Below, piece after piece: positions 2,248-62,470 of a stretch of DNA of 64,000 bases. The notes under the pieces are model-generated. The model did not search any database. It saw only the letters and a program-made list of their open reading frames with translations, and was not told the origin of the DNA. The stretch comes from Parcubacteria group bacterium Gr01-1014_8. Lineage in GTDB: Bacteria; Patescibacteriota; Minisyncoccia; Phycocordibacterales; UBA2100. The position numbers and the translations under genes were made by a program. The stretch lies in contig VMGC01000002.1 in the NCBI GenBank assembly GCA_007376385.1, forward strand, positions 1 through 64,000, read 5' to 3'. How positions within the stretch are numbered: the first letter of the stretch is position 1; every line of letters starts with the position of its first letter.

Positions 2248-3086
2248 TTGAGTTCAGTTTGTCCACAGCATAAAAACCATCAAGGCGACGCCTTGATGGT
2301 TTTTGCTATTATCCGGGAATGGCATTGCGTCGTCAGTCATTTGAAATCGACGAATGGTACCACTGTTACAACCGGGGAATCGATAAGCGTGCGACTTTTA
2401 AGTACGGGCACGATTACGAGCGTTTTCTGCAACTTCTATACCTCTGTAATGCAAAAGAGCCCGTTCATCGCAGCAATTTGACGGCTCGGACTACAAAAGA
2501 GGTTATGAATGTGCCTCGGCAGGCGGAGATTGTATCCATAGGGGCGTATTGTCTTATGCCTAACCATTTTCATTTGCTCGTGAAGGAAAAAACAATTGGT
2601 GGGATCACAGCATTTATGCAGCGTCTTGGCACGGCATATACAATGTATTTCAATATTAAGCATGGTCGTATAGGAAATCTTTTCTATAAACCGTTTCGAT
2701 CTCGGCATGTGATTGACGACAGATATTTCCAGAGGGTTGTTGAGTATTTACACTGTAATCCCGCGGAGCTTTTTGAAGTCAACTGGAAGCAGGGTGTTGT
2801 TAAAGATATGCAGGCGCTTGAAAAAAGAATCTCATCGTATCGATACTCAAGTTTTTCGGATTATCACGAGGAGAAGCCACGTTCGGAGCGGGTAATACTA
2901 TCGCCCGAAGGATTTGAGATCGCAAACGTACGACCTCTTCGACAGATGCTCGGAGAAGCTCGTGCATATTATGCGGATATTGCAATTGATGAAGCAACTT
3001 CGAAAACCATCAAGGCGTCGCCTTGATGGTGGGGTCGCCTTGAGGCTAGAAATGACGGGGTTTTACGTATCACCGTATTTTGGACA
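2247..3086 (+). mobile_element. IS200/IS605-like (RAYT-like) insertion carrying a single HUH Y1 transposase gene
   Basis: An 840-bp segment between 35-bp direct repeats. A subterminal perfect palindrome AAAACCATCAAGGCG-A-CGCCTTGATGGTTTT lies near the left end (about 2268-2298). A near-identical imperfect palindrome lies at the right end (about 3008-3036). The single ORF has the HUH motif. Confidence 0.6.
2319..3026 (+). CDS. IS200/IS605-family (Transposase_17 / RAYT-like) HUH tyrosine transposase
   Basis: 235-aa ORF. It has the HUH motif (YCLMPNHFHLLV) and a downstream YxxxNP tyrosine motif (VEYLHCNPAE) typical of TnpA(IS200) and REP-associated tyrosine transposases. Confidence 0.8.
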   Translation: MALRRQSFEIDEWYHCYNRGIDKRATFKYGHDYERFLQLLYLCNAKEPVHRSNLTARTTKEVMNVPRQAEIVSIGAYCLMPNHFHLLVKEKTIGGITAFMQRLGTAYTMYFNIKHGRIGNLFYKPFRSRHVIDDRYFQRVVEYLHCNPAELFEVNWKQGVVKDMQALEKRISSYRYSSFSDYHEEKPRSERVILSPEGFEIANVRPLRQMLGEARAYYADIAIDEATSKTIKASP

Positions 3087-7151: not shown

Positions 7152-7183
7152 CGCGCCGCACTCATTCGAGCGTTTATTAACTC

Positions 7184-7189
7184 TATAAT
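7184..7189 (+). promoter_or_regulatory. -10-like TATAAT box, 8 nt upstream of the ATG (possibly a leaderless or short-leader mRNA)
   Basis: ctcTATAATGATGAGTAATGCGAAACGCGC is shared 30/30 nt with the region upstream of 10031. Confidence 0.4.
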
Positions 7190-7197
7190 GATGAGTA

Positions 7198-9685: not shown

Positions 9686-9702
9686 TTTTGAACAGTTGTT
9701 CG
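9686..9702 (+). promoter_or_regulatory. second copy of TTTTGAACAGTTGTTCG motif
   Basis: Identical to 7135..7151. Here it is separated from the TATAAT by the inserted 277-bp TIR element. Confidence 0.45.
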
Positions 9703-9734
9703 AATACAGGCCCCGTTTGAGACGGTATTCGCTC

Positions 9735-10021
9735 TATAACCCCGTGAGATAGTTACGCACTATTTTTAATGCGCGTCTTTATATATCGTTTGCCCCAAGC
9801 AGTTTTAAGATATTTTTCTCGAATGTGCGCGTCCTTAATCGAGGTGGATGCCTCGTAGTAAACAAGTTGCCACGGACCCCTATTTTTTGTTGAGAATACT
9901 TTGTTGCTGTTATGAAGATTGAATCTTCGGCGTAAATTATTCGTAGAGCCCACATAAAACTGCTTGGGGCCACGAATTACATACACATAGTACATGTACC
10001 TAATTATCTCACGGGGTATAA
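9735..10021 (-). mobile_element. TIR-bounded mini-element carrying only a GIY-YIG nuclease gene (TIR CCCCGTGAGATA / TATCTCACGGGG; 5-bp TSD TATAA)
   Basis: The left TIR core is at 9740..9751 and the right TIR core at 10005..10016. TATAA flanks both sides (9735..9739 and 10017..10021). The paralogous empty site at 7181..7210 contains a single TATAA. Confidence 0.6.
9753..9995 (-). CDS. GIY-YIG nuclease family protein (stand-alone URI domain, approx. 80 aa)
   Basis: MYYVYVIRGPKQFYVGSTNNLRRRFNLHN... shows the GIY-YIG signature (YVY..FYVG/YIG, R, H/N). It occupies almost the whole interior of the TIR element. The stop codon abuts the left TIR. Confidence 0.85.
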   Translation of the reverse strand: MYYVYVIRGPKQFYVGSTNNLRRRFNLHNSNKVFSTKNRGPWQLVYYEASTSIKDAHIREKYLKTAWGKRYIKTRIKNSA

Positions 10022-10030
10022 TGATGAGTA

Positions 10031-13000
10031 ATGCGAAACGCGCATGTCGCAGGTGTTTTGTTTGTAATTCTTGCAGCTACTATCTGCAGTGCTGCATTCA
10101 TAGCTCTCGGTTCATCATTTGTGCCTACTGCATCTGCACAAAGTGGACAGGGTAATTGCAAGACGCAATACGATGCGTGTATAAAGGCCGCGAATTCCGC
10201 TGCTGCGAAAGCACAGACCTCTGCGCAAGTACAACAGGCTGCGAAGGATAAAGCATCATGCATGCCGAAGTGGCGCACGTGCATGAACAAATGTAAGCAG
10301 CTTACGAAAGGTGCAGACGGTGCTTCGAGCTGTTCGACGGATAGTGAATGCAAAGGAAAACGCTGCAAGGATACCTATAACGATCTAACGAAAGAGAGAA
10401 AGTGTTGCGTAAATCTTTATGACCTCGGAAAAGAATCGCAAAATTCGTGCCCGAATGAAGTTACCTCTAGTGTAGGGCTGCGATGTTATGAAGATGCTGC
10501 GGCGCCTCATGACCCGACAAAAGGGGGAACGCCTGGGGGCACGCCATCTACGCCAGGCGGACAGCCGGAACAACCTTCGGGAGGAATGCCGCAAATTCCG
10601 CAACCGTCGCCGGGAGAAGGCTCACCGCCGAAAGAGCAACCCAAAGAAGAACCGACGCCAGAGCCGAAAAAGGAACCGACATTGTTTGAGAAATTCGCTC
10701 AGTATCTTGGAGGAGATACACCGAAGACAGATGATGCAAAATCACCGCTCGATTATTTCTTCAAGAAAGATGAGGTTGAGCTTGGTTCAACACCCGCTGA
10801 TACTTTAGGAAAGGATTTCCCCGATGCATCGGACAAATGGTGGAATGATGCTGTTGGGCAAAGCACATTCGGTGCGCCCGAAAATTCAGTAGTAACCACA
10901 GACCAGAGTAATTGGGAGCAATTCAAAGAACATATAGCAAATGGAGATATTGTCGCAGCGGGTGGAGATGTCATTGATGGCGCAAAAAATGTGCTTGGTC
11001 TAGGCGATGAAGTGGCTGCAGAGATTCCAGGCGATACAAAAACACTGACTGATGAAACTCCTGACGTGCCAAAAGAGGGACAACAATATGCTGAAGCAAA
11101 ACCCGGTGCCGCCCCGGAAAAACCGACGTCAGATTTAAGTAAAGAGGAGCAAAAGGCAATCACGGAAAAATCCCTGAAAGATACTGAAGCGAAGATCGCC
11201 GCTACCAACAAGGATCTTCAGAATCCCAATCTTGACGAAGCATCAAAAGAAGCACTTCGGGAAAATCTGAAGGACCTTCAATCGCAGCAAGCGGATCTTA
11301 AAAAGGAAATAAACGATCTCGCTAATCCTCCTGAGGCGATACGGAACAAAGCCATCATGGGTGAAGGTGCGCTAAGTGAACACCAACTGCCGTATGACGC
11401 CGAACCAGGGGGGAGAAAAGTATACGTTGAAACAGATGGACCGAACGGAAAGCATATCGTCGAAGTGGACTCGAAAACGGCGGGGACCGATGCCAATGGG
11501 AAGCCTACGACCCTGGGCGATATCGCCCAAGCAAATGGCGCCGGAAATTCGCCGACAAATCCGCTGCCGATGGATGCAGTGCGGTCAGCGGTGGGTGGAG
11601 ATGAAGGACTGAAGGCAATGACAACTCCTACTATAGAGAAGACAGGCGAGGCTCTTACATACAACCGGCCAGTCGGTCCTAATGATCAGGCAACTCTTGA
11701 TGTTAAAGTCGAAAAAAGTCCGGTCAGCAATTTATATGAAGTCAATCAAGATCCGCTGAAAGTCGCTTCGGAAGGGTATCAAGAGGGAGAGGGCAAAGTG
11801 GTGAACGAGGGCAAATTCCTTTTTGGTGAGGGAGCAAAACCACCACCCGCAGGGGAGCCACCTACAGCGGCGTCTCCGCCACCGCCTGCGGAATCTGAAA
11901 AAAGTGACGCATCAGTCGCACGCTCCCCGAATACGCCCGAAGAATATGCAAAAGCCGCCGAAGAAGCGATCAAGCGATCGATGGTAAATCTGGGGAATGG
12001 TTTTGCAAATGTCGTCGATGCCGCAAGAGAAGGAATTAGTAATGCTGCTGTTGAAGTTCAAAAATGGGCGCACGAGGCGAAACAAGCGGCAGCAGATGCA
12101 TACAATTATGTTGCCGGCACAATAGAAGATATACGTCCCGCAGGAAATCCTACAGACGTACAAGCGCCCTCCCCCGGGCCGGTGGCGCAGCAGCCGAGTC
12201 CATCGCCGGGCGATAATCCAGGCGGAGGCACTGTTGTACCTGATACACAAGGAACCATTCCTATAAAAGCGCCCACTGGTCCCGGAGATCAAAATCCTCC
12301 GGTTAAGTCTGGGGACGGATCGACTGATGGAGGAAAAACGGAACCAACGATTACTCCCACGGATAAACCTGGCAAAGACATAGACGCGCCTGTTCCTGAT
12401 CCGCAAGGGAAAACAAAACAACCGACAACGCCGAGTCCGGAAGGAAAGGAGCAGACGGTACCACAGCCTGCGCCGCCAAGCTCTCCTCCAAATCGGGGTT
12501 GGTTTAAAAGAATCGCCGATGCGCTCCGTGGTTTTCCGATTCCCGGTCCCTCACCTTCGCCGACAAATATCTCACCGTCCGTATTTCAACCGCAGCCACA
12601 AGGTCAAGATCAAAAGCAGGCCCCGCAGCCAACGCCTTCAGAAAAGAAAGGTCAACCGGAACCGGATCCGAAAGGGACCGCAAAAAGTAATTTTGCTCCG
12701 AAAACAAAAAATAACCTCCAGGAGTTTTTGGCAGATGCGCTCAAAAAATTCGCAGATGGAATTGCGAAGCGAACAGGTCAAGATCCTGGAGAAACTCCAG
12801 GAGGACAAGGTCCGAGCAAGACCGCGAAAGATAACGATCCGAATAAACCCCTTGGGAACAGCTTGGAGAATCCGAAGCAAGTGAAAGATGGAATTCCTGC
12901 GAAGAGCAATACCGGCGAAGCTGGAACCGGCAAAGGTCAGGAGGGAAAGCAGCAACAGCAGAAGGGAGCAAAAGACCAGGAAGGGCAGAAAAAAGGAGAC

Positions 13001-16000
13001 GATGGGAAGCAGGGAGTGCCATCTGGCACGCCAAGCAATACACCTGCGCCCCCTGACTTACCGCGACCGAATATGGTCGCGAAATTACAGGTACCGACTC
13101 CTGTAGCTTCGAATGACCCAAAGGGAAAAACCATCGAGGCTCAAAGCAAAGAGAATGTCCAAACACAGCCTGGCGATAGCGGGCAAGGGCAGGGACAGCC
13201 CAAAGGTGGAGGCAAATCTCTGCTTGAGAAACCGAGTTCTGAAAAAGTCGAAAACGCAACGCCGAGCCCGAGTCCTACCAGAGGTTTCCTTGCGAAGCTT
13301 CCAAATCCGCTTGTATCAATTCCAGGAAAAATAGTAGGCGTGAGTGCGCCTGACGGCGATGCAGTGCCAAGTCCGGCAGGCGATGTGATGCGAACGTCGG
13401 ATGGGCGGCTCAAAACACCGAGTATTTCTGGACGTTCATTGGAAGGACAGCCTGTCAAAGCCGTTGGAGATGCGAAGAAACTACTGCCGACTCTCATCTC
13501 GACGAGAGCTGAAGATGTGCGAGATTTTGTGAGAGGAAGCGGGGTCAGAACTCGGTTCGGTATCAAAGATTGTGCGGCAGCCCCTACTGGCTGGGTTTGT
13601 CAGAACTTAGGAGACATAGCGCAAAGGCAAGGATGTTCGCCTGGGGACCATTCGTGTTGGCAATCTGACGTTGCTGATGCGGAGGCATATTGGGCAAAGC
13701 TTCTCATGCAGCCAAATTACACGCGATGTCAGCCACTGACCGTGCAATGCATTATTAGCGGTCCTGATGGGAGAGGCAATTGGGTCGCCGATGATTCTGC
13801 ATGGAGACGTGCGCAAGGATTAGGCGGTACAGGCTCTAACGCTGACCATGTTGGCAGAGTCATCAGATTCATGGCCGAGAAAGGAGTAAATGTCCAGGGG
13901 AACACGCCTCTCGATCTGAATGATGCGAATGTGAGAAGGGCGTTGGCTTACGGTCAATCAAGAGCCGAACTTAGGGCAGGCGAGAGCGCATATGACGATA
14001 GCGTGATTGATACGGGTTATGAACGCGCTGTTGCGCGCGCTGGCGGAGCACCCCCGCCGCCAATTGTGCCGTCCACACCACCTGCGGCGATTCCGGTGCA
14101 ATCAACGCACGCGCAAGCTTTGCAAAAATATCAAGATGCATTGGCCTGCAAGGGCAATGAGTGTAGACAGCAGAAGATAGATGTTCGAAATCCCCAAGGT
14201 GTGTCGCCAGAGCTGGCGGAGCAAATAAAGCAGCGACATAGCACCGCTCCACAAAAACCTGGGTATGGTACGGAAGTGAACAAGGCGACTGTCATAGCCG
14301 ACCTTGCTGCGTGCGAGGCGATGGGGGGCGGCTGTGGCAGATTATCTTCGTCGGCCCGTTCGCCAGGACAGACGAGGCATGGTCCGGGAGATGCGATTGA
14401 CGTCACGTTCACCGACCCACAAACGCAAGGCACATATGCAGCGCTTTTCATGAACGGCGCCCATGCACTCGGGGCAACTCCTGGCATGGGTTTCAATACA
14501 GAATGCAGCACGGGTTGCATCGTACATGCAGACACGGTAGGCGCGAGTGCCGGACCTGGGGCAGCGAACGCGTGGGCCTATGGTCCTAACTGCGGAAGCG
14601 GAAGCAGCGACTGCATAAAAAATATAGTCGACCCACGGGTTCGTTCAATTGCGAATCTCGCGTATGCGGGGCAGCCGGTTCCTAATAACCTTGTTCCAGA
14701 ATCTATTACACCAGGGACTACGGTTCCAGGGGGGACACCCGCGAGTCAGGTTGTCCGTGGCCCACATGTTCCCGGTTCCGAGCCGGGCATTGTTCCGGGA
14801 AAGGAAGAAGCCAGCAGGTCGCCGGAGGAACAAAAGAAATTAGACGACGATGCGGCACGTGAAAAGCCAAGCCCCTCGGCCACAAAGTCTCCGCCTGGTC
14901 TCACTGGTGACGTTGCAAAAGACGCTGTAAATAAATTCTCACACGATCTTGGGCAAAGGGGATTTGTCTTTGGAAAGGACAGTAAGCTCCTCACGCCACA
15001 GGAAGCAGCAGAGCTATTCAAGAAAGGAGAAAAGCCGGATATCTATCTACCTCGCGACAAAGGTCCGAATCCATTTGCGAGCCCGGAGCAAAAAGCACAA
15101 TTTACGAAAGCTCCAAACGGGCAACATTATGAAAAATTCGAAGGGACTTTTGATGAGTATCGTCAGCGTCTGACGCAAGAATTAACAGCAGCCATTGAAA
15201 ATGCGATGCGTGACCAGCAGCTCAATTCGAAACCGGAGACGGAGAAACTTCGGGATGGAGGAAAACTTGTAACGAAGGGTGAGGGCCAGATACGCAATGT
15301 GTTTCGAGAAAAAGACGGAAAACTAAGTGACAAGCCTGTCGGTCAGGTGCGCGAGATAAGCAAAGAATTTGCGCAACTTCGAAAGGCAGTAGAACTGCAA
15401 GGCGACAAAGTGAAAGTGAAAGAAAAAAATGGACAGTTCAAAACAGAAGATGGAAGACGCGTCGAATTGCGTCCTGATACCGGCAAGGATGCGCCGCCGC
15501 CGTGCACTGATTTTACAAAATGTCATACGGGCGGAAAGATAGAGAATGGAAGATTTGTCGGAGCAGATGGTTCTAACATCGTGAATATACCGGGTGTTGG
15601 ACGCGTAAGATTTGAGCACAATCCATTCAGCCCGAATGCAGGAACGCAACGCGGAAATATGAGTGCGCTCGTCATCCATGAATTCAGAAACCCAGGCGGC
15701 GCAAGGAATGTTGATAGTACGGTGAGATGCCATCAGAACGGTTGCCGAGGAGGAGGCGTATATACGCAAGCGTATGTAAGCCAGCCCTATATTGCAGAGG
15801 ATGGAATGAAGGAAATACGCGTAGTTCAGCTCGGTTCGGCGTACGAGCGCAGTGGCCACGCGGGCTCGACACCGCTTGGCAGCCAGCCGGGACCCGGAAT
15901 AGAGAATGCGTGTCACGGAAGAGGAGATTGCAGTGATCCTCTGCAGATTGCGGCGAACGCTATTATGTATGACGCCTATCGTCAGCAATATCCGAATATG

Positions 16001-17200
16001 GCCGTGACGCATCACCAAGGGGATGAAGGTTTGCCTATTGCGCGTGCACTGTACGCACGCGTACAGGGCGGTTTGCAGGGTTCACTATCAGATGAGCCAG
16101 TCGCACTTTTCGCAGTATCGGAAAATGGAGATGCCGAGAAACTGGGCACCAGCATGAAGCCATCTGAACTTCCAGCGGCCGGCGGTACCGAATTCGAAAG
16201 TGTAGGGGACAATGGAAACCCAAATGGAGATGTCCGTATCGAACTTGATCCCATCAAGATAGGCACAGCAGACGTTCAGCCGACAATAGAAGGCGACAAA
16301 CTCGGTTTTGTCCCGACCTATACGCCGCCACCTCCTCCGCCCGCTCCACCGCCTCCTCCATCTTTTAGACAGAGAATGGCAGAAGCAGCGCGACGCCAAT
16401 TGGACAATTTGTCGAACGCGATGAAAAAAATGATGCAGCCGCCTAGCGGGGGCGGTGGAGGACAGCCGCAACCTCAACCGCAGCCACCTGTGCCACCTCC
16501 GCCTCCAATTCCACCAACATCGACAACGGGCGAGCCGAAAATAACCTGTACACCGACCGCTGCGATCGCGGATCAAAAAGTGAGAATTAAATGGTCGTGC
16601 CCTCCAACCCAGCTAGCAGTCGGCGTCGGCTTCGAGACCAAAGGTTTGGCGAATAGCGAAGTAGAAGTGCGCGTATCGAATGATAAGACACTATCGGAAG
16701 CGAAATATTCACTTCGCTGCGGAACGCTTCCGGAGCGTTCATGCACGGTGAAGATAGTCCGCCCGGCTATACTTATGATCGCCCAGCCTGGCGAAGTAGG
16801 ATCTGGGAAGACAACGAATCTAGCATGGGCGGCGACTCAAGTCCGAGTCTGCAAGATATACGACCCCGCATGCAAGGTTGTAGGTTCCGGTAATTCGGGT
16901 GGCAGAATAAAAACGAAAGCTCTGACTCGTTCAAGTACTTTCATGCTCGGCTGTGAGACAATTACAGGCGCAATGACCACGTCATCTGTTGTCGTAAAAG
17001 TGAAAGGAGATACGAAGGAACCACTTCCTGCGTGTCCGGCGGAAAGCATCCAACATGATGTTGTATTTACGACGAGCAGCTTGAACACTAAAAGTACTCC
17101 AACAGCCTACCCAGTACCATCTTCCAGCGGGTCCACAGAGCTGTGCAGTCCAAATCTTGATTTCGATTCTTTTATCAGATGTGTGATGGGTAAGAAGTAA
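10031..17200 (+). CDS. giant (2389 aa) secreted Cys-rich/Pro-rich surface protein (paralog family A) with two C-terminal beta-sandwich-like repeats
   Basis: It has a signal peptide. The N-terminal Cys-rich module is homologous to that of the 7198 gene. It contains long low-complexity P/G/Q/K-rich regions. A mid-region motif SPGQTRHGPGDAIDV resembles the HxxGxAxD zinc motif of peptidase M15/LAS enzymes (low confidence). The C-terminal domains show the VxxGxxxxxxW..C pattern. Confidence 0.85.
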   Translation: MRNAHVAGVLFVILAATICSAAFIALGSSFVPTASAQSGQGNCKTQYDACIKAANSAAAKAQTSAQVQQAAKDKASCMPKWRTCMNKCKQLTKGADGASSCSTDSECKGKRCKDTYNDLTKERKCCVNLYDLGKESQNSCPNEVTSSVGLRCYEDAAAPHDPTKGGTPGGTPSTPGGQPEQPSGGMPQIPQPSPGEGSPPKEQPKEEPTPEPKKEPTLFEKFAQYLGGDTPKTDDAKSPLDYFFKKDEVELGSTPADTLGKDFPDASDKWWNDAVGQSTFGAPENSVVTTDQSNWEQFKEHIANGDIVAAGGDVIDGAKNVLGLGDEVAAEIPGDTKTLTDETPDVPKEGQQYAEAKPGAAPEKPTSDLSKEEQKAITEKSLKDTEAKIAATNKDLQNPNLDEASKEALRENLKDLQSQQADLKKEINDLANPPEAIRNKAIMGEGALSEHQLPYDAEPGGRKVYVETDGPNGKHIVEVDSKTAGTDANGKPTTLGDIAQANGAGNSPTNPLPMDAVRSAVGGDEGLKAMTTPTIEKTGEALTYNRPVGPNDQATLDVKVEKSPVSNLYEVNQDPLKVASEGYQEGEGKVVNEGKFLFGEGAKPPPAGEPPTAASPPPPAESEKSDASVARSPNTPEEYAKAAEEAIKRSMVNLGNGFANVVDAAREGISNAAVEVQKWAHEAKQAAADAYNYVAGTIEDIRPAGNPTDVQAPSPGPVAQQPSPSPGDNPGGGTVVPDTQGTIPIKAPTGPGDQNPPVKSGDGSTDGGKTEPTITPTDKPGKDIDAPVPDPQGKTKQPTTPSPEGKEQTVPQPAPPSSPPNRGWFKRIADALRGFPIPGPSPSPTNISPSVFQPQPQGQDQKQAPQPTPSEKKGQPEPDPKGTAKSNFAPKTKNNLQEFLADALKKFADGIAKRTGQDPGETPGGQGPSKTAKDNDPNKPLGNSLENPKQVKDGIPAKSNTGEAGTGKGQEGKQQQQKGAKDQEGQKKGDDGKQGVPSGTPSNTPAPPDLPRPNMVAKLQVPTPVASNDPKGKTIEAQSKENVQTQPGDSGQGQGQPKGGGKSLLEKPSSEKVENATPSPSPTRGFLAKLPNPLVSIPGKIVGVSAPDGDAVPSPAGDVMRTSDGRLKTPSISGRSLEGQPVKAVGDAKKLLPTLISTRAEDVRDFVRGSGVRTRFGIKDCAAAPTGWVCQNLGDIAQRQGCSPGDHSCWQSDVADAEAYWAKLLMQPNYTRCQPLTVQCIISGPDGRGNWVADDSAWRRAQGLGGTGSNADHVGRVIRFMAEKGVNVQGNTPLDLNDANVRRALAYGQSRAELRAGESAYDDSVIDTGYERAVARAGGAPPPPIVPSTPPAAIPVQSTHAQALQKYQDALACKGNECRQQKIDVRNPQGVSPELAEQIKQRHSTAPQKPGYGTEVNKATVIADLAACEAMGGGCGRLSSSARSPGQTRHGPGDAIDVTFTDPQTQGTYAALFMNGAHALGATPGMGFNTECSTGCIVHADTVGASAGPGAANAWAYGPNCGSGSSDCIKNIVDPRVRSIANLAYAGQPVPNNLVPESITPGTTVPGGTPASQVVRGPHVPGSEPGIVPGKEEASRSPEEQKKLDDDAAREKPSPSATKSPPGLTGDVAKDAVNKFSHDLGQRGFVFGKDSKLLTPQEAAELFKKGEKPDIYLPRDKGPNPFASPEQKAQFTKAPNGQHYEKFEGTFDEYRQRLTQELTAAIENAMRDQQLNSKPETEKLRDGGKLVTKGEGQIRNVFREKDGKLSDKPVGQVREISKEFAQLRKAVELQGDKVKVKEKNGQFKTEDGRRVELRPDTGKDAPPPCTDFTKCHTGGKIENGRFVGADGSNIVNIPGVGRVRFEHNPFSPNAGTQRGNMSALVIHEFRNPGGARNVDSTVRCHQNGCRGGGVYTQAYVSQPYIAEDGMKEIRVVQLGSAYERSGHAGSTPLGSQPGPGIENACHGRGDCSDPLQIAANAIMYDAYRQQYPNMAVTHHQGDEGLPIARALYARVQGGLQGSLSDEPVALFAVSENGDAEKLGTSMKPSELPAAGGTEFESVGDNGNPNGDVRIELDPIKIGTADVQPTIEGDKLGFVPTYTPPPPPPAPPPPPSFRQRMAEAARRQLDNLSNAMKKMMQPPSGGGGGQPQPQPQPPVPPPPPIPPTSTTGEPKITCTPTAAIADQKVRIKWSCPPTQLAVGVGFETKGLANSEVEVRVSNDKTLSEAKYSLRCGTLPERSCTVKIVRPAILMIAQPGEVGSGKTTNLAWAATQVRVCKIYDPACKVVGSGNSGGRIKTKALTRSSTFMLGCETITGAMTTSSVVVKVKGDTKEPLPACPAESIQHDVVFTTSSLNTKSTPTAYPVPSSSGSTELCSPNLDFDSFIRCVMGKK

Positions 17201-17747: not shown

Positions 17748-18308
17748 ATGACACTTATCATCACACTTGGCGCAGCTGCGGTTTTGGTTCTTTGGGTTAT
17801 TTATGCATATAACCGACTTATTCAACTTACTAATCGCGGCGAGGAAGCGTGGTCGGATATCGACGTTCAATTGAAGCGCCGTTACGACCTCATTCCGAAC
17901 CTTGTGGAAGCAGTGAAAGGTTACATGACGCACGAAGCAGGAACTTTGCAGAAAGTGACCGAAGCCCGCACGAAAGCAATGGGCGCGCAGTCGGTTGGTG
18001 ACCACGCGGAAGCGGAAAATATGTTGACTGGCGCATTGAAGTCTTTGTTCGCAGTTGCGGAGAGTTACCCGGACTTGAAGGCGAATACGAACTTTGTTGA
18101 ATTACAACGAGAGCTGTCGGATACAGAAAATAAAATTCAAGCGGCTCGCAGGTTCTACAATTCTGTCGTGCAAGACCTTCAGAACGCACTTGAGTCATTC
18201 CCATCGAATATCATAGCCTCTTCATTTGGTTTCAAGACACGAGAATTCTTCACATTGTCGGAATCAGAGGCGGCTGCAGCAAAAGAGCCTGTGAAAGTTA
18301 GTTTTTAG
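17748..18308 (+). CDS. lemA: LemA family protein
   Basis: 186-aa ORF with an N-terminal TM segment and a conserved LemA core (YNRLIQLTN...RRYDLIPNLVE...RRFYN). Confidence 0.85.
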   Translation: MTLIITLGAAAVLVLWVIYAYNRLIQLTNRGEEAWSDIDVQLKRRYDLIPNLVEAVKGYMTHEAGTLQKVTEARTKAMGAQSVGDHAEAENMLTGALKSLFAVAESYPDLKANTNFVELQRELSDTENKIQAARRFYNSVVQDLQNALESFPSNIIASSFGFKTREFFTLSESEAAAAKEPVKVSF

Positions 18309-18331
18309 CCACTAGGGTATAGCCACTAGGG
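18309..18331 (+). repeat. left imperfect inverted repeat (tandem GCCACTAGGG units) flanking four-helix-bundle gene
   Basis: ccactagggtatagccactaggg is reverse-complement-related to 18713..18738 (ccctataccctaatggctaatggcta). Confidence 0.45.
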
Positions 18332-18334
18332 CGG

Positions 18335-18694
18335 ATGCAAACGTACAAAGATTTAATTGTTTGGCAACGGGGTGTCCAACTCGTGACTTCGGTGTACCAG
18401 TTGACAGAGAAATTACCCAAATCGGAAATATTTGGATTGACAAGCCAAATGCGACGATCAGCAGTTTCAATTCCCGCAAATATTGCCGAGGGGTATGCGC
18501 GCAAACATCGTGCGGAATATATCCAGTTCTTGAGAATTGCATATGGTTCGGGAGCGGAACTCGAGACACTCATGATAATCATTCAAAATTTAAGATATGC
18601 AAAAGGATCTGATATCAGAGAAGTCTCGGATTTACTAGATGAGACGATGCGCATGTTAAACAAGTTTATTTCATCGCTTACTCAAAAAACTTAA
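18335..18694 (+). CDS. four-helix-bundle protein (TIGR02436 / 23S rRNA intervening-sequence protein family)
   Basis: 119-aa ORF showing the family hallmarks (KDLIVWQ..., SIPANIAEGY.R....FL.IA.GS..E). Confidence 0.8.
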   Translation: MQTYKDLIVWQRGVQLVTSVYQLTEKLPKSEIFGLTSQMRRSAVSIPANIAEGYARKHRAEYIQFLRIAYGSGAELETLMIIIQNLRYAKGSDIREVSDLLDETMRMLNKFISSLTQKT

Positions 18695-18712: not shown

Positions 18713-18738
18713 CCCTATACCCTAATGGCTAATGGCTA
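18713..18738 (+). repeat. right imperfect inverted repeat flanking the four-helix-bundle gene (overlaps the htpX start)
   Basis: See 18309..18331. Confidence 0.45.
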
Positions 18739-20217: not shown

Positions 20218-20239
20218 ATATACCGATATATCGGTATAT
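20218..20239 (+). promoter_or_regulatory. perfect 22-bp palindrome ATATACCGATATATCGGTATAT, 3' of the TrpR-like gene
   Basis: Self-complementary. A second copy of the 20-bp core is at 20682..20701. Confidence 0.55.
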
Positions 20240-20251
20240 GCTAGATGAGAG

Positions 20252-20671
20252 TCATCTAGAGCGACGCGATCTAAGCTCCCGAATTCTTTTAGCGTGACGC
20301 GGTCCGGCTATTGATGGCATACCCGCAGAAAGAAATATCTCCAGCGTTTCAAGAAACGAAATATCCGATCTCTTGCCTGTTATCGCATTGCGAATGGGAT
20401 CAAACATGCCTGCCAATAATCTACGATGTAAGCGTTTGATGGTTGAAGTACTTACTTTGAGGGTTTTTTCAATCCGATAGTAGGAGAAATCCTTTTCAAG
20501 CATCACGATGATCGCAAAACGCTTTGCCAGCATGACCTTTTCTGTCGAGGTAAGGAGAGACTGGAGCAACGGCTTGCCTCTATCTGCAGACGTAAAAAAA
20601 GCATTCATCAAGTTGTTGTTAATGCGGTTCTCAATCTTTCTATTCATTGTGTATTTTGATACATGAGTCAT
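20252..20671 (-). CDS. TrpR/YerC-YecD-like HTH DNA-binding protein
   Basis: 139-aa ORF. The helix-turn-helix region (TEKVMLAKRFAIIVMLEKDFSYYRIEKTLKVSTSTIKR) resembles the Trp repressor/YerC family. Confidence 0.55.
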   Translation of the reverse strand: MTHVSKYTMNRKIENRINNNLMNAFFTSADRGKPLLQSLLTSTEKVMLAKRFAIIVMLEKDFSYYRIEKTLKVSTSTIKRLHRRLLAGMFDPIRNAITGKRSDISFLETLEIFLSAGMPSIAGPRHAKRIRELRSRRSR

Positions 20672-20681: not shown

Positions 20682-20701
20682 TATACCGATATATCGGTAT
20701 A
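20682..20701 (+). promoter_or_regulatory. second copy of the perfect palindrome TATACCGATATATCGGTATA, 11 bp upstream of the TrpR-like gene start (candidate auto-operator)
   Basis: Identical 20-mer core to 20219..20238. Confidence 0.55.
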
Positions 20702-20752
20702 TAGTACTAGTGTCTTTTGAAAAACATTGCTCTGTGACTATACTGCCGTTTT

Positions 20753-26354: not shown

Positions 26355-26383
26355 TCTCTGAATTATTGTGGCATAATGCTGCC

Positions 26384-26838
26384 CTGCGCTGGGTAGTCGC
26401 CCCGTGAGATAATTGCTCAGATATGTACTACGTGTACGTGCTTTGGGGCAAGGGGTATCTGAAGTTGCGTATCAAACATAGGGAGTAACTATCTCACGGG
26501 GAGGAAAGTCCGGGCACAGGCCCTTTTTGGGCAGCAGGGTAGCGGGTAACGCCCGTACGCCGCAAGGCGAGAGGTGCGAACAGAGACGCTTCCGACGAAA
26601 GGTAGGAAGCATCTCCGAAGGTCGAAAGGCTCTTGGAGACGAGCTCTTCAGGCGACTGGAGAGGTGCAACGGCAAAATCCTTACTTCTGTGCAAGACCGT
26701 GTCCAGTTGGGGTTTTATTCAATTGATAAAACTTCATCTGGAAGAGTCGCTAGAGGTGAGCGGTAACGCTCATCCTAAGATAAATGACTGCACATTCCGT
26801 CTTAGACGGAAGGACAGAACCCGGCTTATAGGCGCAGC
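26384..26838 (+). ncRNA. rnpB: RNase P RNA (bacterial type A-like)
   Basis: It contains the conserved CR-I AGGAAAGTCCGGGC (26501-26514) and CR-V ACAGAACCCGGCTTA (26815-26829). The ends are approximate. Candidate P1/P2 pairing is CTGCGC (26384-26389) with GCGCAG (26832-26837). Confidence 0.75.
26400..26501 (+). mobile_element. copy of the CCCCGTGAGATA/TATCTCACGGGG TIR element (102 bp, no ORF, no TSD) at the RNase P RNA P3 position
   Basis: The TIR cores are at 26400..26411 and 26490..26501. The right TIR abuts AGGAAAGTCCGGGC. Confidence 0.55.
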
Positions 26839-27240
26839 GAAATGAGCGAGGCGAAAAAGCCTCGCTTTTTCGTATCCGAATGAGCAAGCCTAGGAGCGTA
26901 GCGATATAGACGCAGACAGACAGGCGAAGCAGAAATGCTTCGCTTTTCTGCTTCGGAGCAAACGTTAGATCCAGCGAAATGAGCGACCAATTTTTGTTGG
27001 CCGCAGACGTTACAAAAATGGGAGTGCCCCTGTGGTGCGAAACGAAAAAGCTTTGCTTTTTCATTTCCGAATGAGCAAGCTTATATGAGCCTTGGCGAAT
27101 TGAGGCGCAGCGCAGCGAGCAACGCAAACGAGTGTTGCTCGTTTGCGTTTGAACCAGCAAGTTTGGGAGCGTAGCGATATAGCACGCAACAAAAAAGTCA
27201 GCTCGGAAGGCCTCACCTCTTCTTTTTTTCGTATGTTAAA
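26836..27240 (+). repeat. hairpin-rich degenerate tandem repeat region
   Basis: These units repeat: GCGAAATGAGCGA (26837, 26953); CGAAAAAGCYTYGCTTTTTC..TCCGAATGAGCAAGC (26852, 27047); GGAGCGTAGCGATATAG (26893, 27164). There are several 9-10 bp stem hairpins. Confidence 0.6.
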
Positions 27241-41983: not shown

Positions 41984-42086
41984 TATACCCCATGAGATAA
42001 ATACATTGAAATTAACCGGGCAACTCGAATATATCTACACAAAAGATAACTGCAAAAAACACCACATGACTATCTCACGGGGTATA
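41984..42086 (+). mobile_element. ORF-less copy of the CCCC(A/G)TGAGATA/TATCTCACGGGG TIR element (95 bp) with 4-bp TSD TATA
   Basis: TIR cores at 41988..41999 and 42071..42082. TATA is at 41984..41987 and 42083..42086. The right end sits 9 bp upstream of the ABC transporter ATG and creates a TATACT -10-like box. Confidence 0.6.
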
Positions 42087-42094
42087 CTTGTCCA

Positions 42095-46894: not shown

Positions 46895-47578
46895 TTATTT
46901 CTTAGGCAGATCTTTTAGCCACATGTCGTTCGGAAGCTCAACGTCGAGACGGTGCCTGGCTCCCTCAAGGCTCACGAATCCCAAACGGACTGCAATATTA
47001 TCGTCCGTTATCGGTATGTTCTCTTCTCGCAAAAAATTCGTCGCAACTGCTATAGCCTCAGCGTGGATCCTATCTTTAATTTCTCGCGGCGAAACAAAGT
47101 CTCCGCTTTCCCATTTGAACTTTTTCTTGGCACTGTGCCATATTGCGCGAGGTCCTTTTGAGTCGTAGGGGTGTTCTGAGAAATACAAGATATGCCGGAG
47201 TTCCGAGGCGGCAATAAGAGCGCGCGCTAACATAGTTTCCACTATTTTGATGTCAGCATGTATGTGCGAGATTTGCTCATCGGAAAATGCAGCGTCACCC
47301 TCGTCGATGTATCCACGGATGGCTCCCAAGTTTTGAGCGACATTTTTTCGTGCATAGGTCAATTCATCTCGCAGATGCTTCGCTCTTTCGTTATACTTAC
47401 TCGCAACTTTTTTCTCCATAACTCCGCGCATTTGCCCGCCAAGGTATTCGTAATTATTCGCGGAGACAGTAAGCGTTCTCAATAATTCATTTTTCTGGAG
47501 TTCGTTTGCGGTGGGCTCACTGGTGAGCGGGATATTTTGGCGAGGTCGATCGGGAGAATTGCCCATAGGTACCCGCAT
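46895..47578 (-). CDS. hypothetical protein (227 aa)
   Basis: No recognisable domain. Confidence 0.55.
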   Translation of the reverse strand: MRVPMGNSPDRPRQNIPLTSEPTANELQKNELLRTLTVSANNYEYLGGQMRGVMEKKVASKYNERAKHLRDELTYARKNVAQNLGAIRGYIDEGDAAFSDEQISHIHADIKIVETMLARALIAASELRHILYFSEHPYDSKGPRAIWHSAKKKFKWESGDFVSPREIKDRIHAEAIAVATNFLREENIPITDDNIAVRLGFVSLEGARHRLDVELPNDMWLKDLPKK

Positions 47579-47617
47579 TGTATCTCATGCGGTTTTCTAG
47601 CCAAAGAATGAAGAAAC

Positions 47618-55747: not shown

Positions 55748-55876
55748 TATGACCCCGTAACGAAATGTGCCTTAGGCTTGAACATCATATGAAAACAAAT
55801 CACCAAAACGGACAAATCAACAAAGTCGAACTTTATCTGTCGAGGATAGCAAGCGAAATGCGAAAGCGCAGGTTTC

Positions 55877-56025
55877 GCATTTCCGAGCGACACAGACAGC
55901 AAAGGTTTAAAACCCCGCGGCTTGCCTGCCTGTGCGATGCACGCAGACAGGCCGCGGAATTTGGGAAACGAGCAGCGCTCGTTTTCCAGAGTCCAGGGCT
56001 TGCCCTGGGGGTTGAAACCTTTCAT
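55877..56025 (+). repeat. REP-like repeat copy 1 (with nested GC-rich palindrome insertion)
   Basis: It shares gcatttccgagcgacRcagacagcaaaggtttaaaaccccgcggcttgcc ... gggttgaaacctttcat with 63362..63433. Copy 1 carries an extra approx. 77 bp holding three hairpins. Confidence 0.7.
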
Positions 56026-56084
56026 CCGACCACGCCGCGGCAGCCGGCAGGCGTCTGCCGCAAAGGCACATTTTCTAACGGAGT

Positions 56085-56726
56085 ATGACGAGCACGATGA
56101 CAGAAGCTGATGTACTGGATCTCTTAGAGCGTGTTGGTGCCTTCCGAAAAGGGCATTTTGTGCTTACTTCCGGAAGACACGGTGATACGTATATAAACAA
56201 AGACGCCATATATCCTTACACCCGCGAAACATCTGCGCTGTGTAGGGCGATGGCAGAAAAATTCAAAGACCTCAATATAGAGGTTGTCGTAGGTCCGGCG
56301 GTCGGTGCGGCCATTCTTTCTCAATGGGTCGCCTACCATTTGTCCGAGATGAACGGCCACGATGTACTGGGCATCTATGCGGATAAGGATGGCCAGGGCG
56401 GATTTATCTTGAAACGAGGCTTTGACAAACTGGCGGAAGGGAAACGAGTGATCGTTGTTGAAGATCTGATGACGACAGGCGGCTCGGTAAAAAAGGTCAT
56501 TGATGTCGTCCGTCAAAAAGGAGCAGAGGTCGTCGGAGTCGGGGTTGTGTGCAATCGAGGCAATGTGCTCCCCGAAGATATCGGGGATCCGCCGAAGTTG
56601 ATATCGCTTGTTGATGTGCAGCTCGATTCGTGGGAGGCAGCGGATTGCGCCTTGTGCGAGAGAAAAATACCCGTAAATCCAGACATCGGTCATGGAAGAG
56701 AATTTCTAGCTACGCATGGAATATAA
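56085..56726 (+). CDS. pyrE: orotate phosphoribosyltransferase
   Basis: GHFVLTSGRHGDTYINK and the PRPP-binding motif VIVVEDLMTTGGS. Confidence 0.9.
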   Translation: MTSTMTEADVLDLLERVGAFRKGHFVLTSGRHGDTYINKDAIYPYTRETSALCRAMAEKFKDLNIEVVVGPAVGAAILSQWVAYHLSEMNGHDVLGIYADKDGQGGFILKRGFDKLAEGKRVIVVEDLMTTGGSVKKVIDVVRQKGAEVVGVGVVCNRGNVLPEDIGDPPKLISLVDVQLDSWEAADCALCERKIPVNPDIGHGREFLATHGI

Positions 56727-57911: not shown

Positions 57912-58019
57912 TATACCCCGTGAGATATGTATAAAAAAGGCATCTTAACTAGCTGATTATTCATTTGAATTTATAGATTGTGATGAGAAATTTGGAGTGT
58001 ACCTATCTCATGGGGTATA
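57912..58019 (+). mobile_element. ORF-less copy of the TIR element (100 bp) with 4-bp TSD TATA
   Basis: TIR cores at 57916..57927 (CCCCGTGAGATA) and 58004..58015 (TATCTCATGGGG). TATA is at 57912..57915 and 58016..58019. Confidence 0.6.
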
Positions 58020-58044
58020 CTTCTCACGACAGGCGCTTGTAACC

Positions 58045-58503
58045 ATGAAGTCGATAATTTCGATCGTAGCAGTGTTGCTGATGGCAGGAGTCGCGTACAT
58101 TATATGGCCGCAGTTCGCGAATGCACCGCAAATAGATGATCCTAGCGCGACAGAACGGGTCTCGGAACAGAAGAATGTACCGGTGGATGAGCAATTTGCA
58201 ACACTTATTACGTACACAGATGGGGGGTATAGCCCGCAAACGGTTTCAATAAAAAAAGGTCAGACAGTCAGGTTCGTTAATAACGCAGAACGCCAGGATA
58301 CATGGCCTGCGTCCGCCATACATCCCACCCATTCGATCTATCCGCAAAAAACGGACAGCGATTGTCTAGGGAGTTCATTCGATCCATGCCACGGATTAAA
58401 GCCGGGAGAGTTCTGGGAGTTTACGTTCAATGAAGTCGGGGAGTGGGGTTTCCATGACCACTTGCATCCGTCGAAGTTCGGGAAGATCCTCGTTACTGAA
58501 TAG
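58045..58503 (+). CDS. hypothetical exported protein, possibly cupredoxin-like
   Basis: It has an N-terminal TM/signal segment (MKSIISIVAVLLMAGVAYIIW) and a small beta-rich domain with conserved His/Cys (HPTHSIYP, DPCHG, FHDHLHP). The start was chosen at 58045. Confidence 0.55.
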   Translation: MKSIISIVAVLLMAGVAYIIWPQFANAPQIDDPSATERVSEQKNVPVDEQFATLITYTDGGYSPQTVSIKKGQTVRFVNNAERQDTWPASAIHPTHSIYPQKTDSDCLGSSFDPCHGLKPGEFWEFTFNEVGEWGFHDHLHPSKFGKILVTE

Positions 58504-59637: not shown

Positions 59638-60840
59638 TTATTTTCGACGAAGGAAGGAAGGAAGTCCACCCCATGCGTCATCGTCGTCGTCAGAAGCCGG
59701 ATCGCTTGCTCGCGGAATTTCCCTTGGAGATGGCGTTTCGCTTGGCTTTTGCGTTTCCACGCTCTTTCTCTCCATTCGCAAAGGCGGCAGCTCGTCAGCC
59801 TTGCGGCCGGCGAGTCTTTGAGGACCAAAAAGCTGTCTCCCTGTTCCTTCTGGAAAGCCTGTCGCGATGACCGTGACTCGTACCTGGCCTTTCTTGAGAT
59901 TGTCGTCCGTAACAGCGCCAAAAATAACCTTTGCCTCCGGGTCGATGGCTTCTGTTATGACATTGGCTGCATCCTGGATCTCCAACATGCCGAGATCCTC
60001 GCCGCCTGCGATGGAGAAGAGGACGCCCTTCGCACCTGTTATAGAAACTTCGAGGAGGGGAGAGTTTATTGCGGCACGAGCAGCGGACTCTGCACGCTTC
60101 TCACCCATAGCCGTTCCGATGCCCATAAGCGCCGAGCCCGCATTTTGCATGATGGTGCGCACGTCCGCGAAGTCTACGTTTATGATACCCGTTGTTGTAA
60201 TGAGGTCGGAAATACCCTCGACCGCCTGTTTTAAGATATCGTCACACATCGCGAAGGCGTTCTTGATGCCAGTATCTCTCGAAACAATAGAGAGAAGTTT
60301 TTCGTTCGGTATGATGATGATGGCGTCAACTGCCTTCCGGAGCTCCGAGATGCCTTGCTCTGCAAGCCTCATTCTCTGCGCTCCTTCAAATGCAAAGGGT
60401 TTCGTGACTACTCCAACCGTGAGGGCGCCAAGCTCGCGCGCTACTTTCGCGATGACGGGAGCCGCACCGGTCCCCGTGCCGCCGCCCATTCCACCGGTAA
60501 TAAACACCATGTCGGAACCTTTGAGGGCATCTTGAATATCTTCCTTCGTCTCTTCCGCCGCTTGTTTGCCAATATCAACATTCATGCCTGCGCCAAGTCC
60601 GCGCGTCAAACTTTTGCCGATATGGATCTTTTTCTTGGCTCTCGATTTATGGAGGTCCTGCGCGTCTGTGTTTATTGAAATGAAATCTACGCCGACGACG
60701 TGGGACGCCACCATGTGATTAACGGCGTTTCCGCCGGAGCCGCCGACGCCAACTACGCGTATCCGAGCAAATGACTCAACGTCGGGCTTGATCTGCTTGG
60801 CCATGGTGAGCCCATGATAGCAGGGTTTTACGAAAGGCAA
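59638..60840 (-). CDS. ftsZ: cell division protein FtsZ
   Basis: Tubulin signature GGGTGTGAAPVIA. The N-terminal domain is typical. Confidence 0.95.
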   Translation of the reverse strand: MPFVKPCYHGLTMAKQIKPDVESFARIRVVGVGGSGGNAVNHMVASHVVGVDFISINTDAQDLHKSRAKKKIHIGKSLTRGLGAGMNVDIGKQAAEETKEDIQDALKGSDMVFITGGMGGGTGTGAAPVIAKVARELGALTVGVVTKPFAFEGAQRMRLAEQGISELRKAVDAIIIIPNEKLLSIVSRDTGIKNAFAMCDDILKQAVEGISDLITTTGIINVDFADVRTIMQNAGSALMGIGTAMGEKRAESAARAAINSPLLEVSITGAKGVLFSIAGGEDLGMLEIQDAANVITEAIDPEAKVIFGAVTDDNLKKGQVRVTVIATGFPEGTGRQLFGPQRLAGRKADELPPLRMERKSVETQKPSETPSPREIPRASDPASDDDDDAWGGLPSFLRRK

Positions 60841-60989: not shown

Positions 60990-61095
60990 TTGACCCCGTG
61001 AGATAAACATGGTGACGTTCGAGTCGAACATGTGGTTTTGTTGTGGCTCTCAAGCACCGCCTAACAATAAGGAATGGGTTATCTCACGGGGTTGA
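60990..61095 (+). mobile_element. ORF-less copy of the TIR element (98 bp) with 4-bp TSD TTGA, in the ftsA-ftsZ intergenic region
   Basis: TIR cores at 60994..61005 and 61080..61091. TTGA is at 60990..60993 and 61092..61095. Confidence 0.6.
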
Positions 61096-61297: not shown

Positions 61298-62470
61298 TTA
61301 GGGCAAAAGCGTCCTAAAACCAGTGCGAAGCGAGTCGATCGTGCGGGAAAGAATGTCTCCAAACGTATGCATTGGCGCGGCGGCGTCTTCCGTGTACGCC
61401 CAGCGGCACAGCCCGTAGGCGACAGCCCACGTCGCGTCCAGACTACCAAGGCGCGGGATACCTGCTGGGACGCCGATCTGCGAAGGAATGCGAAGCGTTG
61501 TGCGTGCAATATCTGTCGCTTGTGCTACACCAGAACCGCCGCCGGTAATAACGATGCCAGCGGGAAGCAGCCGGTGCCGCCCGATAGTTTTTAAGTGTGC
61601 ATTCATCAGCAGGTACATTTCTTTGAGTTGGCTGGAAACAATGCTTCCCATTTTGCGCGGAGGAATGTCGCTGCCGGTTACCGCCCCTCGTTTCATCTGC
61701 TCTGCTTCCGAAAGCGGGATTTGGAACGAAAGCGCTATCGCGTTAGTGATATCCGATGAGCCGATAGGAAACACTTTCACGGAAATAGGTACATCGTTGT
61801 CATAGACGATGATGGAAAGCGTTTCAGCTCCGATATTCGCAAGAACTACACCGGCTGTCTTTTGCGCTTTGGTAAGTGTGACAAAACTCGCGGCGAGAGG
61901 GGAAGCCATCACGCCTTCTACTTCAATGCCGGCCGATTCGACTGCGTCAATAAGATCATCATGGTGCTGCGTCAGGATAGAAATAATGAGCGTGTCTACG
62001 GAAAGTTTTGTACCCTGAAGACCGTGCGGGCGGCCGCGAACAGGGATGCCGTCTATGCGGTACTCAAGAGGTATGGTATGCAGTATTGTACGATTTATGA
62101 GCCTGGAAATTGCCTTTTTTTCACTCTCGCGCTGTGAGCGCTCGATCTCTCTCTCGGTCGCAATTCCTCCCGATGTCGTTAGCGTGACATCTCCGGTCGA
62201 GCGCATTTCTTCTAAGCTGACTCCTCCCATTGCGATGCGGGCGCTCCGTACAGGCGTTTTTGACGCTTGAGCCGCCCTACCGACTGCCTCGCGGATGCTC
62301 CGTGTTACTTCCTTAGGGTCTACAAGATATCCGTGGCGCATGCCTTTCGAAGAGGCAGAGCCGGTGCCGATGATGGTCATTGGCAGCTCGGGTGAATCCG
62401 GGGGACTCGCAATGACTGCTTTCACATGGTACGTACCGATATCAATTCCTGTATAGATAGTTCGGCGCAT
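61298..62470 (-). CDS. ftsA: cell division protein FtsA
   Basis: It has an actin-like ATPase fold (IDIGTYHVKAV..., GGGSGVAQ). It lies upstream of ftsZ. Confidence 0.9.
   Translation of the reverse strand: MRRTIYTGIDIGTYHVKAVIASPPDSPELPMTIIGTGSASSKGMRHGYLVDPKEVTRSIREAVGRAAQASKTPVRSARIAMGGVSLEEMRSTGDVTLTTSGGIATEREIERSQRESEKKAISRLINRTILHTIPLEYRIDGIPVRGRPHGLQGTKLSVDTLIISILTQHHDDLIDAVESAGIEVEGVMASPLAASFVTLTKAQKTAGVVLANIGAETLSIIVYDNDVPISVKVFPIGSSDITNAIALSFQIPLSEAEQMKRGAVTGSDIPPRKMGSIVSSQLKEMYLLMNAHLKTIGRHRLLPAGIVITGGGSGVAQATDIARTTLRIPSQIGVPAGIPRLGSLDATWAVAYGLCRWAYTEDAAAPMHTFGDILSRTIDSLRTGFRTLLP

Follow-up and report, generated by a model that had tools for sequence, protein, structure and literature searches.

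Miniature inverted-repeat elements that share their arms with a 277-bp GIY-YIG nuclease cassette in a Parcubacteria genome

Four short elements without an open reading frame (ORF) in this genome carry the same terminal inverted repeats, or arms, as a cassette that encodes a small GIY-YIG nuclease. We consider it probable, at roughly 65%, that the four are non-autonomous members of a miniature inverted-repeat family moved with this cassette. In its complete form the element is a cassette of about 277 bp, in which two 12-nt arms (CCCCGTGAGATA and its complement) surround a single gene for an 80-aa GIY-YIG nuclease.

Results

Arm pairs in the window

In the window, by which we mean the whole 64-kb stretch of DNA that was analysed, the motif CCCCRTGAGATA was matched 11 times at up to one mismatch, against 0.40 matches expected, and none of 100 shuffled sequences reached 11. 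Ten of these matches pair up as five inverted pairs of the form CCCCRTGAGATA...TATCTCAYGGGG. Four of the pairs have 12-nt arms, contain no ORF and measure 95-102 bp between arm ends. The preliminary description had placed these four copies correctly, but the total is five, since an ORF-bearing pair of 277 bp lies at 9740-10016.

The first ORF-less copy (41984-42086) consists of TATA at 41984-41987, a left arm CCCCATGAGATA at 41988-41999, an interior of 71 nt, a right arm TATCTCACGGGG at 42071-42082 and a second TATA at 42083-42086. Its left neighbour is tsaD, which is divergent, and on its right the hexamer TATACT (42083-42088) ends 6 nt, and not 9 bp as previously given, before the ATG of an ABC transporter gene at 42095. 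The second copy (57912-58019) has TATA on both sides and arms at 57916-57927 and 58004-58015 that include one G.T pair on the + strand; the ATG at 58045, which starts a gene for a cupredoxin-like protein, follows TATACT (58016-58021) at a distance of 23 nt. The third copy (60990-61095), with arms at 60994-61005 and 61080-61091, is flanked by TTGA on both sides and is situated in the spacer between ftsA (61298-62470, - strand) and ftsZ (59638-60804, - strand), about 190 nt upstream of ftsZ. The fourth (26400-26501, + strand) forms helix P3 of the RNase P RNA. With the third copy in the ftsA/ftsZ spacer and the fourth inside an RNA gene, the earlier statement that all copies lie next to gene starts does not hold. 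The ORF-bearing copy occupies 9735-10022 on the - strand and comprises TATAA (9735-9739), an arm (9740-9751), the GIY-YIG ORF (9753-9995, 80 aa plus stop), a second arm (10005-10016) and TATAA(T) at 10017-10022, the last of which is a -10 box 8 nt before the ATG of a giant gene at 10031.

A sequencing or assembly artefact was rejected as the source of these copies, because the same sites return in independent assemblies and in conserved contexts. Within the window no identical copies were found at different sites, which gives no sign of recent movement there, and no arm pair encloses a larger gene. A solitary arm-like sequence, CCGCATGAGATA, is present at 47581-47592 (- strand), 2 nt before the ATG of an ORF at 46895-47578 whose 227-aa product has no Pfam match.

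Several other repeats surround genes in the window. A perfect 28-nt hairpin-forming repeat, ACCATCAAGGCGACGCCTTGATGGTTTT, occurs at 2276-2303 and 3003-3030 around an ORF at 2319-3026 (235 aa) with an IS200-like Y1 transposase domain (Y1_Tnp, E 1.2e-6); this REP/RAYT- or IS200-like cassette has its own hairpins, which are unlike the arms. An 18-nt inverted repeat (18305-18322 and 18715-18732) surrounds an ORF at 18335-18694 for a 119-aa '23S rRNA intervening sequence protein' (PF05635, E 7e-38), a gene that is free-standing in intergenic DNA, outside any rRNA gene. Identical 21-nt palindromes, ATATACCGATATATCGGTATA, which may be operators, lie at 20218-20238 and 20682-20702 and flank an ORF at 20252-20671 (- strand) for a Trp-repressor-like helix-turn-helix protein. 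Finally, a 22-nt inverted repeat at 55752-55773 and 56063-56084 starts with the faintly arm-like ACCCCGTAACGA and holds an ORF at 55765-56088 (107 aa), which has no Pfam match and contains GC-rich internal hairpins.

The full element and its nuclease

The 80-aa product of 9753-9995 matches the Pfam GIY-YIG family (PF01541, E 1.4e-14). Its AF2 model is a single domain with a pLDDT of 93, in which a separate C-terminal DNA-binding domain with a linker is absent. Foldseek related the model with probability 1.00 to 1ZG2 (UPF0213 protein BH0048) and 7CQ3 (Slx1), and the best matches by sequence among solved structures were likewise UPF0213 protein BH0048 and Slx1. The catalytic-type residues Y3, Y5, Y14, R24, H28 and E48 are invariant in the alignment. 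By its fold and these residues the protein is a GIY-YIG nuclease of the Slx1/URI/UPF0213 branch. A protein of Parcubacteria group bacterium Gr01-1014_8 matches it with 100% identity. At E<=1e-5 a search found 628 relatives; the 120 that were listed have 77-105 aa, mostly exactly 80 aa, and those with names come from CPR bacteria.

The 5' arm together with the next bases reads TGAGATAAT, and this sequence lies 7 nt before the ATG of the nuclease in the window element. In 8 of 8 CPR-type elements the same sequence (once TGAGATAAA) is located 6-8 nt before the nuclease ATG. Because this spacing equals that of the host promoters, the 5' arm probably carries the nuclease's own promoter. A 285-nt stretch around the full element folds far better than shuffled sequences (z -7.8 in sense and -6.7 in antisense orientation). 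It contains an inner 16-bp stem, 9792-9807 with 9955-9970, that is invariant in 6 of the 8 CPR-type elements and has one substitution in each of the other two. A search of positions 9700-10060 against Rfam at E<=10 gave nothing meaningful.

Distribution and covariation of the arms

An exact-match scan for CCCCGTGAGATA-N60-90-TATCTCACGGGG, with one genome per species, found the pattern in 116 stretches, and all 80 that were listed belong to metagenome-assembled genomes. The hosts include Saccharibacteria, Parcubacteria, Kaiserbacteria, Omnitrophota, Pirellulales, Phycisphaerales, Verrucomicrobiia, Ignavibacteria, Bacteroidota, KSB1, Calditrichaceae and others, and several copies per genome are common. 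The arms thus recur over many phyla, in the CPR, PVC and FCB groups, in Omnitrophota and in others. When the ORFs of the 116 loci were clustered, GIY-YIG was the only family tied to the arms, which are 264-304 bp apart around it. An arm-blind control, in which 80 metagenome loci were found by protein alignment alone, had both arms within 70 nt of the ORF in 67 loci, and the modal length of the arm pairs in this set was 278 bp.

At least 10 variant classes of the arms were recognised, with both sides changing together; they include CCCCGTTAGATA/TATCTAACGGGG, TCCCGTTAGAGA/TCTCTAACGGGA, GCCCGTGAAATA/TATTTCACGGGC and CCACGTGAGATA/TATCTCACGTGG. Double changes occur at 8 of the 12 pairs and 96.8% of cells are paired, values that none of 500 shuffles reached. 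In elements that could be oriented by their ORF, the pairs of the 12-bp core with a single change were G.U on the sense strand in 12 cases and A.C in 5. The excess of G.U is suggestive of pairing in the sense RNA, but the difference is not significant.

The elements also take other arrangements. Complete hairpins of 41 and 51 nt stand in tandem in other genomes, where nested half-sites are found as well, and solo arms were few in the fetched loci. In one locus (L070) 41-nt hairpins flank a nuclease gene, a single one on one side and three on the opposite side. Another (L028) holds two identical 96-bp ORF-less copies with different flanks, one on each side of the nuclease gene. In at least eight Kaiserbacteria-like CPR genomes an ORF-less element abuts the tmRNA gene (L083, 2775-2861; L056, L071, L106, L111, L084, L018 and L076). 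The mature RNA starts, in its acceptor stem, with the final three G of the element's arm, and the flanks have a common 3-nt repeat, GGT. Phages as vectors were rejected, as no viral contig had the arm pattern and only two viral proteins, both weak, were related to the nuclease. Rfam covariance models matched no copy at gathering scores. In the open-access papers searched, neither the arm sequence nor GIY-YIG inverted-repeat elements or insertion sequences were described, and no GIY-YIG gene was reported in a bacterial RNase P RNA.

Flanking bases and empty sites

Two elements of the window can be compared with sites that lack them. For the ORF-bearing element the empty site is paralogous. The genes at 7198-9678 and 10031-17200 are adjacent paralogs (826 and 2389 aa) with shared N-terminal regions and near-identical promoter and start sequences, and CTCTATAATGATGAGTA (7181-7197, + strand) directly precedes the ATG of the former. 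When the element at 9740-10016 and one TATAA are taken out, the DNA upstream of 10031 aligns without gaps with that upstream of 7198, including 30 identical bases, CTCTATAATGATGAGTAATGCGAAACGCGC. For the copy at 41988 the empty sites are orthologous, and here the comparison with related promoters that the preliminary description had proposed came out in its favour. The window reads gcgtTATA[element]TATACTtgtccaATG; at the orthologous ABC transporter, gggtTATAATtgccacATG is found in a Kaiserbacteria genome (84% identity) and gcgGTATACTggtgctATG in a 75% relative, and both (L206 and L207) have the promoter site and no element. Target duplication against an empty site is established in this way for the 41988 (TATA) and 9740 (TATAA) copies. 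As judged from these alignments, the TATA-class elements of this Parcubacteria/Kaiserbacteria-like CPR lineage are shown to be insertions into the TATA of predicted -10 boxes.

Outside the CPR the picture is different. Over all phyla (132 elements) the outer four bases follow YTYR on the left and YRAR on the right (TTYA/CTYG/TATA and TRAA/CRAG/TATA, respectively), and few of them are direct repeats. In non-CPR elements with an ORF the reading frame continues through the arm (TAT CTC ACG GGG, giving ...YLTG and stop) and ends at the 3' flank, whose TAA or TGA is its stop codon; the 5' flank is a near-complement of this stop codon. No duplication was found further out from the non-CPR elements, and there the four flanking bases belong to the element itself. 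The earlier reading of the flanking tetranucleotides as target duplications is thus sustained for TATA and TATAA by the paralogous and orthologous empty sites, but not for the non-CPR flanks, which are element-borne. Conversely, the idea that the flanks are mere extensions of the inverted repeat is valid for the non-CPR elements and is overturned for the TATA class by the empty sites. Where elements stand in tandem in other CPR genomes, only one TATA separates neighbours and serves both. Insertion into pre-existing hairpins was also rejected, since complementarity of the flanks beyond 4 nt was not enriched (4.28 vs 4.11).

Position relative to start codons

In CPR loci, the start of a long ORF lies within 60 nt of 37 of 55 TATA-flanked ends. 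The distances to the start codon peak sharply at 12 nt precisely, with 14 cases, corresponding to TATACT-N6-ATG, and this peak is absent at ends that are not TATA-flanked. For CPR genomes these figures agree with the association with -10 boxes that had been proposed for the window. TATACT-N6-ATG is the layout that would be expected for leaderless genes. Among genes of the window that lack an element, TAnnnT is common 6-9 nt upstream of the ATG, so that leaderless or short-leader promoters look like the local norm. At many gene starts of the window this hexamer is present and no Shine-Dalgarno sequence is evident, which suggests that most mRNAs of the organism are leaderless or have very short leaders.

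Because an insertion has TATA on both sides, a -10 hexamer stays in place for the host gene, 6-8 nt ahead of a start codon that is probably leaderless. T is found at the last position of the hexamer at 25 of 28 gene-proximal ends vs 6 of 27 distal ends, so that the -10 box is retained at those ends that need it. It had been suggested that the insertions may rewire transcription. They appear instead to be promoter-preserving, because the duplication restores the -10 hexamer. The association with -10 boxes could also reflect the survival of harmless insertions rather than a targeting of TATA. Across phyla the elements occur in every intergenic orientation (+E+ 26, -E- 23, -E+ 16 and +E- 13, convergent genes included), and a general role as promoter elements was therefore rejected.

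Helix P3 of RNase P RNA

The class A RNase P RNA gene of the window lies at 26384-26842 (+ strand) with an extended -10 sequence, TGGCATAAT, at 26369-26377. It begins with the 5' strands of P1 and P2 (CTGCGCTGGGTAGTCG, 26384-26399), which are followed by the element and then by AGGAAAGTCCGGGC. In four relatives (L119-L122) with the same gene order, a class II ribonucleotide reductase and then RNase P, the RNA reads CTGCGYTAGGCAGYYG, a P3 hairpin of 17-29 nt and AGGAAAGTCCGG (TAGG for GAGG in L122). In the window CTGCGCTGGGTAGTCG, the 102-nt element and AGGAAAGTCCGGG align with these, with the element at the position of the short P3 of the relatives; the element at 26400-26501 is therefore helix P3. 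Infernal recovered the RNA only at 26464-26842 with 97.9 bits, against a gathering score of 100, and forced P1-P3 into the element. The low score is probably due to the 102-nt insertion in P3, and a scan at the gathering threshold therefore misses this gene.

The arm-blind set contains four close CPR relatives (L124, L127, L128 and L190) in which P3 holds a full-length element, with RNase P downstream and the element on the strand of the ribozyme. The element is preceded by ...GGCAGYCG in L124 and L127 and by GATAGTTG / GATAATTG in L128 and L190, and AGGAAAGT... follows. An intact 80-aa ORF in P3 was read in L124, L127 and L128. Positions 12-38 of the 26400 copy are 96% identical to the start of the L127 ORF (27 nt) and positions 32-66 are 89% identical to its end (35 nt), and the copy reads MYYVYVL joined directly to WGKGYLKLRIKHRE and a stop. 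The P3 copy of the window is therefore an internal deletion of a P3-resident GIY-YIG element; by inspection, the deletion took place between short direct repeats, TGCTT.GGGGC. This deletion, together with the shared arms, supports the earlier view that the ORF-less copies are related to an ORF-bearing inverted-repeat element. It had also been reported that no direct repeat flanks the 26400 copy, and this is correct: P3 copies take the exact place of the native hairpin, and a duplication is absent from them.

Arm-like short hairpins are also present at other helices of the RNase P RNA, in L122 at 5449-5481 (CCCATGGGATA...TATCTCACGGG) and in L120 at 5513-5545 (CCCCGTGAAATC...TATTTCACTGGG), and may be degenerate short members of the family.

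Interiors of the ORF-less copies

The interiors of the four ORF-less copies in the window have no mutual similarity (blastn-short, E<=1), as had been noted before. In the exact-match scan the total length of the elements peaks at 95-98 bp. Over 123 elements the folding of the interiors (z -0.40) is at the level of control or neighbouring DNA (z -0.35), so that there is no extra structure; conserved structured RNA was rejected on this result. In the same 123 elements the GC content was 41% in the interiors and 50% in the flanks, and that of the interiors follows the GC content of the host (r = 0.75). As for decayed ORFs, a remnant was detectable in the interiors of only 3-4 of 126 ORF-less copies. 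Copying from elsewhere was rejected as well, with zero matches in the window or in the fetched loci.

Discussion

How the elements may move

We suggest that the nuclease, expressed from the extended -10 sequence in the 5' arm, would recognise the arms and cut TATA-like targets, and in this way would move copies with and without the ORF. In read-through RNA the paired arms would extrude the interior. Insertions may be tolerated in a ribozyme helix, in the ftsA-ftsZ spacer and next to tmRNA because the paired arms extrude what lies between them. The conservation of the arms amid drifting interiors may result from the need for recognition or from conversion between copies. Some findings count against this model. 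Simple MITE amplification from one progenitor would not predict unrelated interiors with intact arms; the narrow length peak is without explanation; and the P3 copies and the non-CPR members have no duplication. To our knowledge GIY-YIG enzymes are hydrolytic nucleases, and we know of no strand-transfer activity among them; the present one, moreover, lacks a separate DNA-binding domain.

A further step would be to regard the cassette as a candidate new class of autonomous DNA transposon of about 277 bp. Its sole protein would be the 80-aa Slx1/URI-type GIY-YIG nuclease. Its arms would act at once as recognition sites, as an inward promoter from which the nuclease is expressed on a leaderless mRNA, and as an RNA helix by which the element could reside within structured RNAs, and it would have a recurrent home in P3 and a range over CPR, PVC, FCB and other phyla. 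We hold this broader reading tentatively and would not give it even odds. We know of no smaller autonomous DNA transposon.

Other explanations

Among the alternatives, the one with the most weight is that the arm pairs are RNA hairpins selected by the host for processing, stabilising or insulating, or are portable promoter modules, and that the nuclease gene merely carries one. It agrees with arms that stay intact and covary strongly while the interiors have diverged, with the ratio of G.U to A.C pairs in the ORF-bearing elements, with one copy that serves RNase P RNA as a functional helix, with elements that abut the mature 5' end of tmRNA, and with the proper -10 box kept at gene-proximal ends. 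However, where relatives lack the elements, the promoters and the P3 at those sites are still normal, and the pairs occur in all intergenic contexts, convergent ones included. An RNA stem requires complementarity, but not one sequence that is conserved between phyla, and the nested and tandem copies look selfish. We therefore consider this explanation unlikely.

Slightly less likely again is the view that the arms are the ends of an unrelated transposase encoded elsewhere, such as an IS1380/piggyBac-like DDE enzyme; the ORF-less copies would then be its ordinary MITEs, and the GIY-YIG gene would be carried as a passenger or for addiction. DDE elements of the IS1380/piggyBac type have CC... ends and AT-rich duplications of 4-5 bp, and the ends described here start with CCC and have a 4-5 bp duplication at TATA or TATAA. 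The piggyBac terminal repeat, CCCTAGAAAGATA, resembles CCCCGTGAGATA, and GIY-YIG nucleases are not known as transposases. On the other hand, GIY-YIG was the sole family tied to the arms when ORFs were clustered in the 116 loci from many phyla, and the arms stand immediately around the ORF in most of the loci selected by protein (67 of 80). The arm pairs of the window enclose no larger gene, solo arms are few in the loci, and the last codons and stop of the ORF, or its promoter, fall inside the arms.

It is very improbable that the repeats border invertible promoter switches flipped by a site-specific recombinase: they are short inverted repeats around AT-richer DNA just upstream of genes (41% vs 50% GC), but the interior of the 41988 copy has one orientation in 3 of 3 independent assemblies, ORF clustering linked no recombinase family to the arms, one copy lies in a ribozyme and one holds a gene, and the -10 box is outside the repeats.

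Comparison with known systems

Returning to a family moved with the nuclease cassette, we find that it resembles several known systems. Like MITEs, the copies are small and intergenic near promoters, and they have short flanking duplications and terminal inverted repeats in common with an ORF-bearing partner. This partner, however, is only 277 bp long and has an 80-aa GIY-YIG nuclease with a putative role as transposase, in place of a DDE, HUH, serine or tyrosine transposase; its interiors are unrelated from copy to copy, with no kinship over the whole length, and some copies lack a duplication. With REP/REPIN-RAYT systems the family shares hairpin repeats scattered in intergenic DNA, tandem arrays and a small nuclease gene that is itself flanked by the repeats (as in L070). 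It differs in having GIY-YIG (PF01541) and not an IS200-like Y1 HUH enzyme, in the lack of a GTAG/CGTC tag, in arms that are kept across phyla and are not species-specific, and in loops from 11 to more than 250 nt.

Bacterial 23S rRNA intervening sequences (IVS) are stem-forming insertions at a terminal hairpin, with or without a small ORF for a PF05635 protein, and are excised by RNase III. The P3 copies resemble them as stem-forming insertions, some with a small ORF and some lacking one, that stand in for a structural RNA's terminal hairpin; but here the host is RNase P RNA, the ORF is GIY-YIG and not PF05635, and the same element is found in promoters too. The catalytic domain with its conserved Tyr, Arg, His and Glu is shared with GIY-YIG homing endonucleases (I-TevI and the Seg proteins) and with Slx1/UPF0213 (YhbQ-like) proteins, and one site in a conserved RNA gene, P3, that is occupied in several lineages is reminiscent of homing. 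Unlike homing endonucleases, the present element has no DNA-binding domain and no intron, is essentially absent from viral contigs, and has inverted repeats, duplications and many copies per genome at non-homologous sites. In summary, the copies work like MITEs, at P3 they work like rRNA IVS, and the layout of gene and hairpins resembles that of REP/RAYT; membership among MITEs, REP/RAYT systems or homing endonucleases fails in each case on a defining feature.

Significance

Whatever the mechanism, a protein-coding gene is nested in the P3 sense strand of an essential ribozyme gene in several CPR lineages, and a 12-nt inverted repeat is unchanged, or present in a few co-varying variants, over very distant phyla. 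The element in P3 probably accounts for an RNase P RNA score in the window that falls just under the Rfam gathering threshold. If the nuclease does move the element, GIY-YIG would join the catalytic classes of DNA transposases and a new lower size limit would be set for autonomous mobile elements. If the cassette is indeed a transposon class of its own, RNase P RNA would also be a messenger RNA. In the streamlined CPR genomes, in which promoter architecture is largely unmapped, the elements flag probable leaderless promoters of the form TATAYT-N6-ATG.
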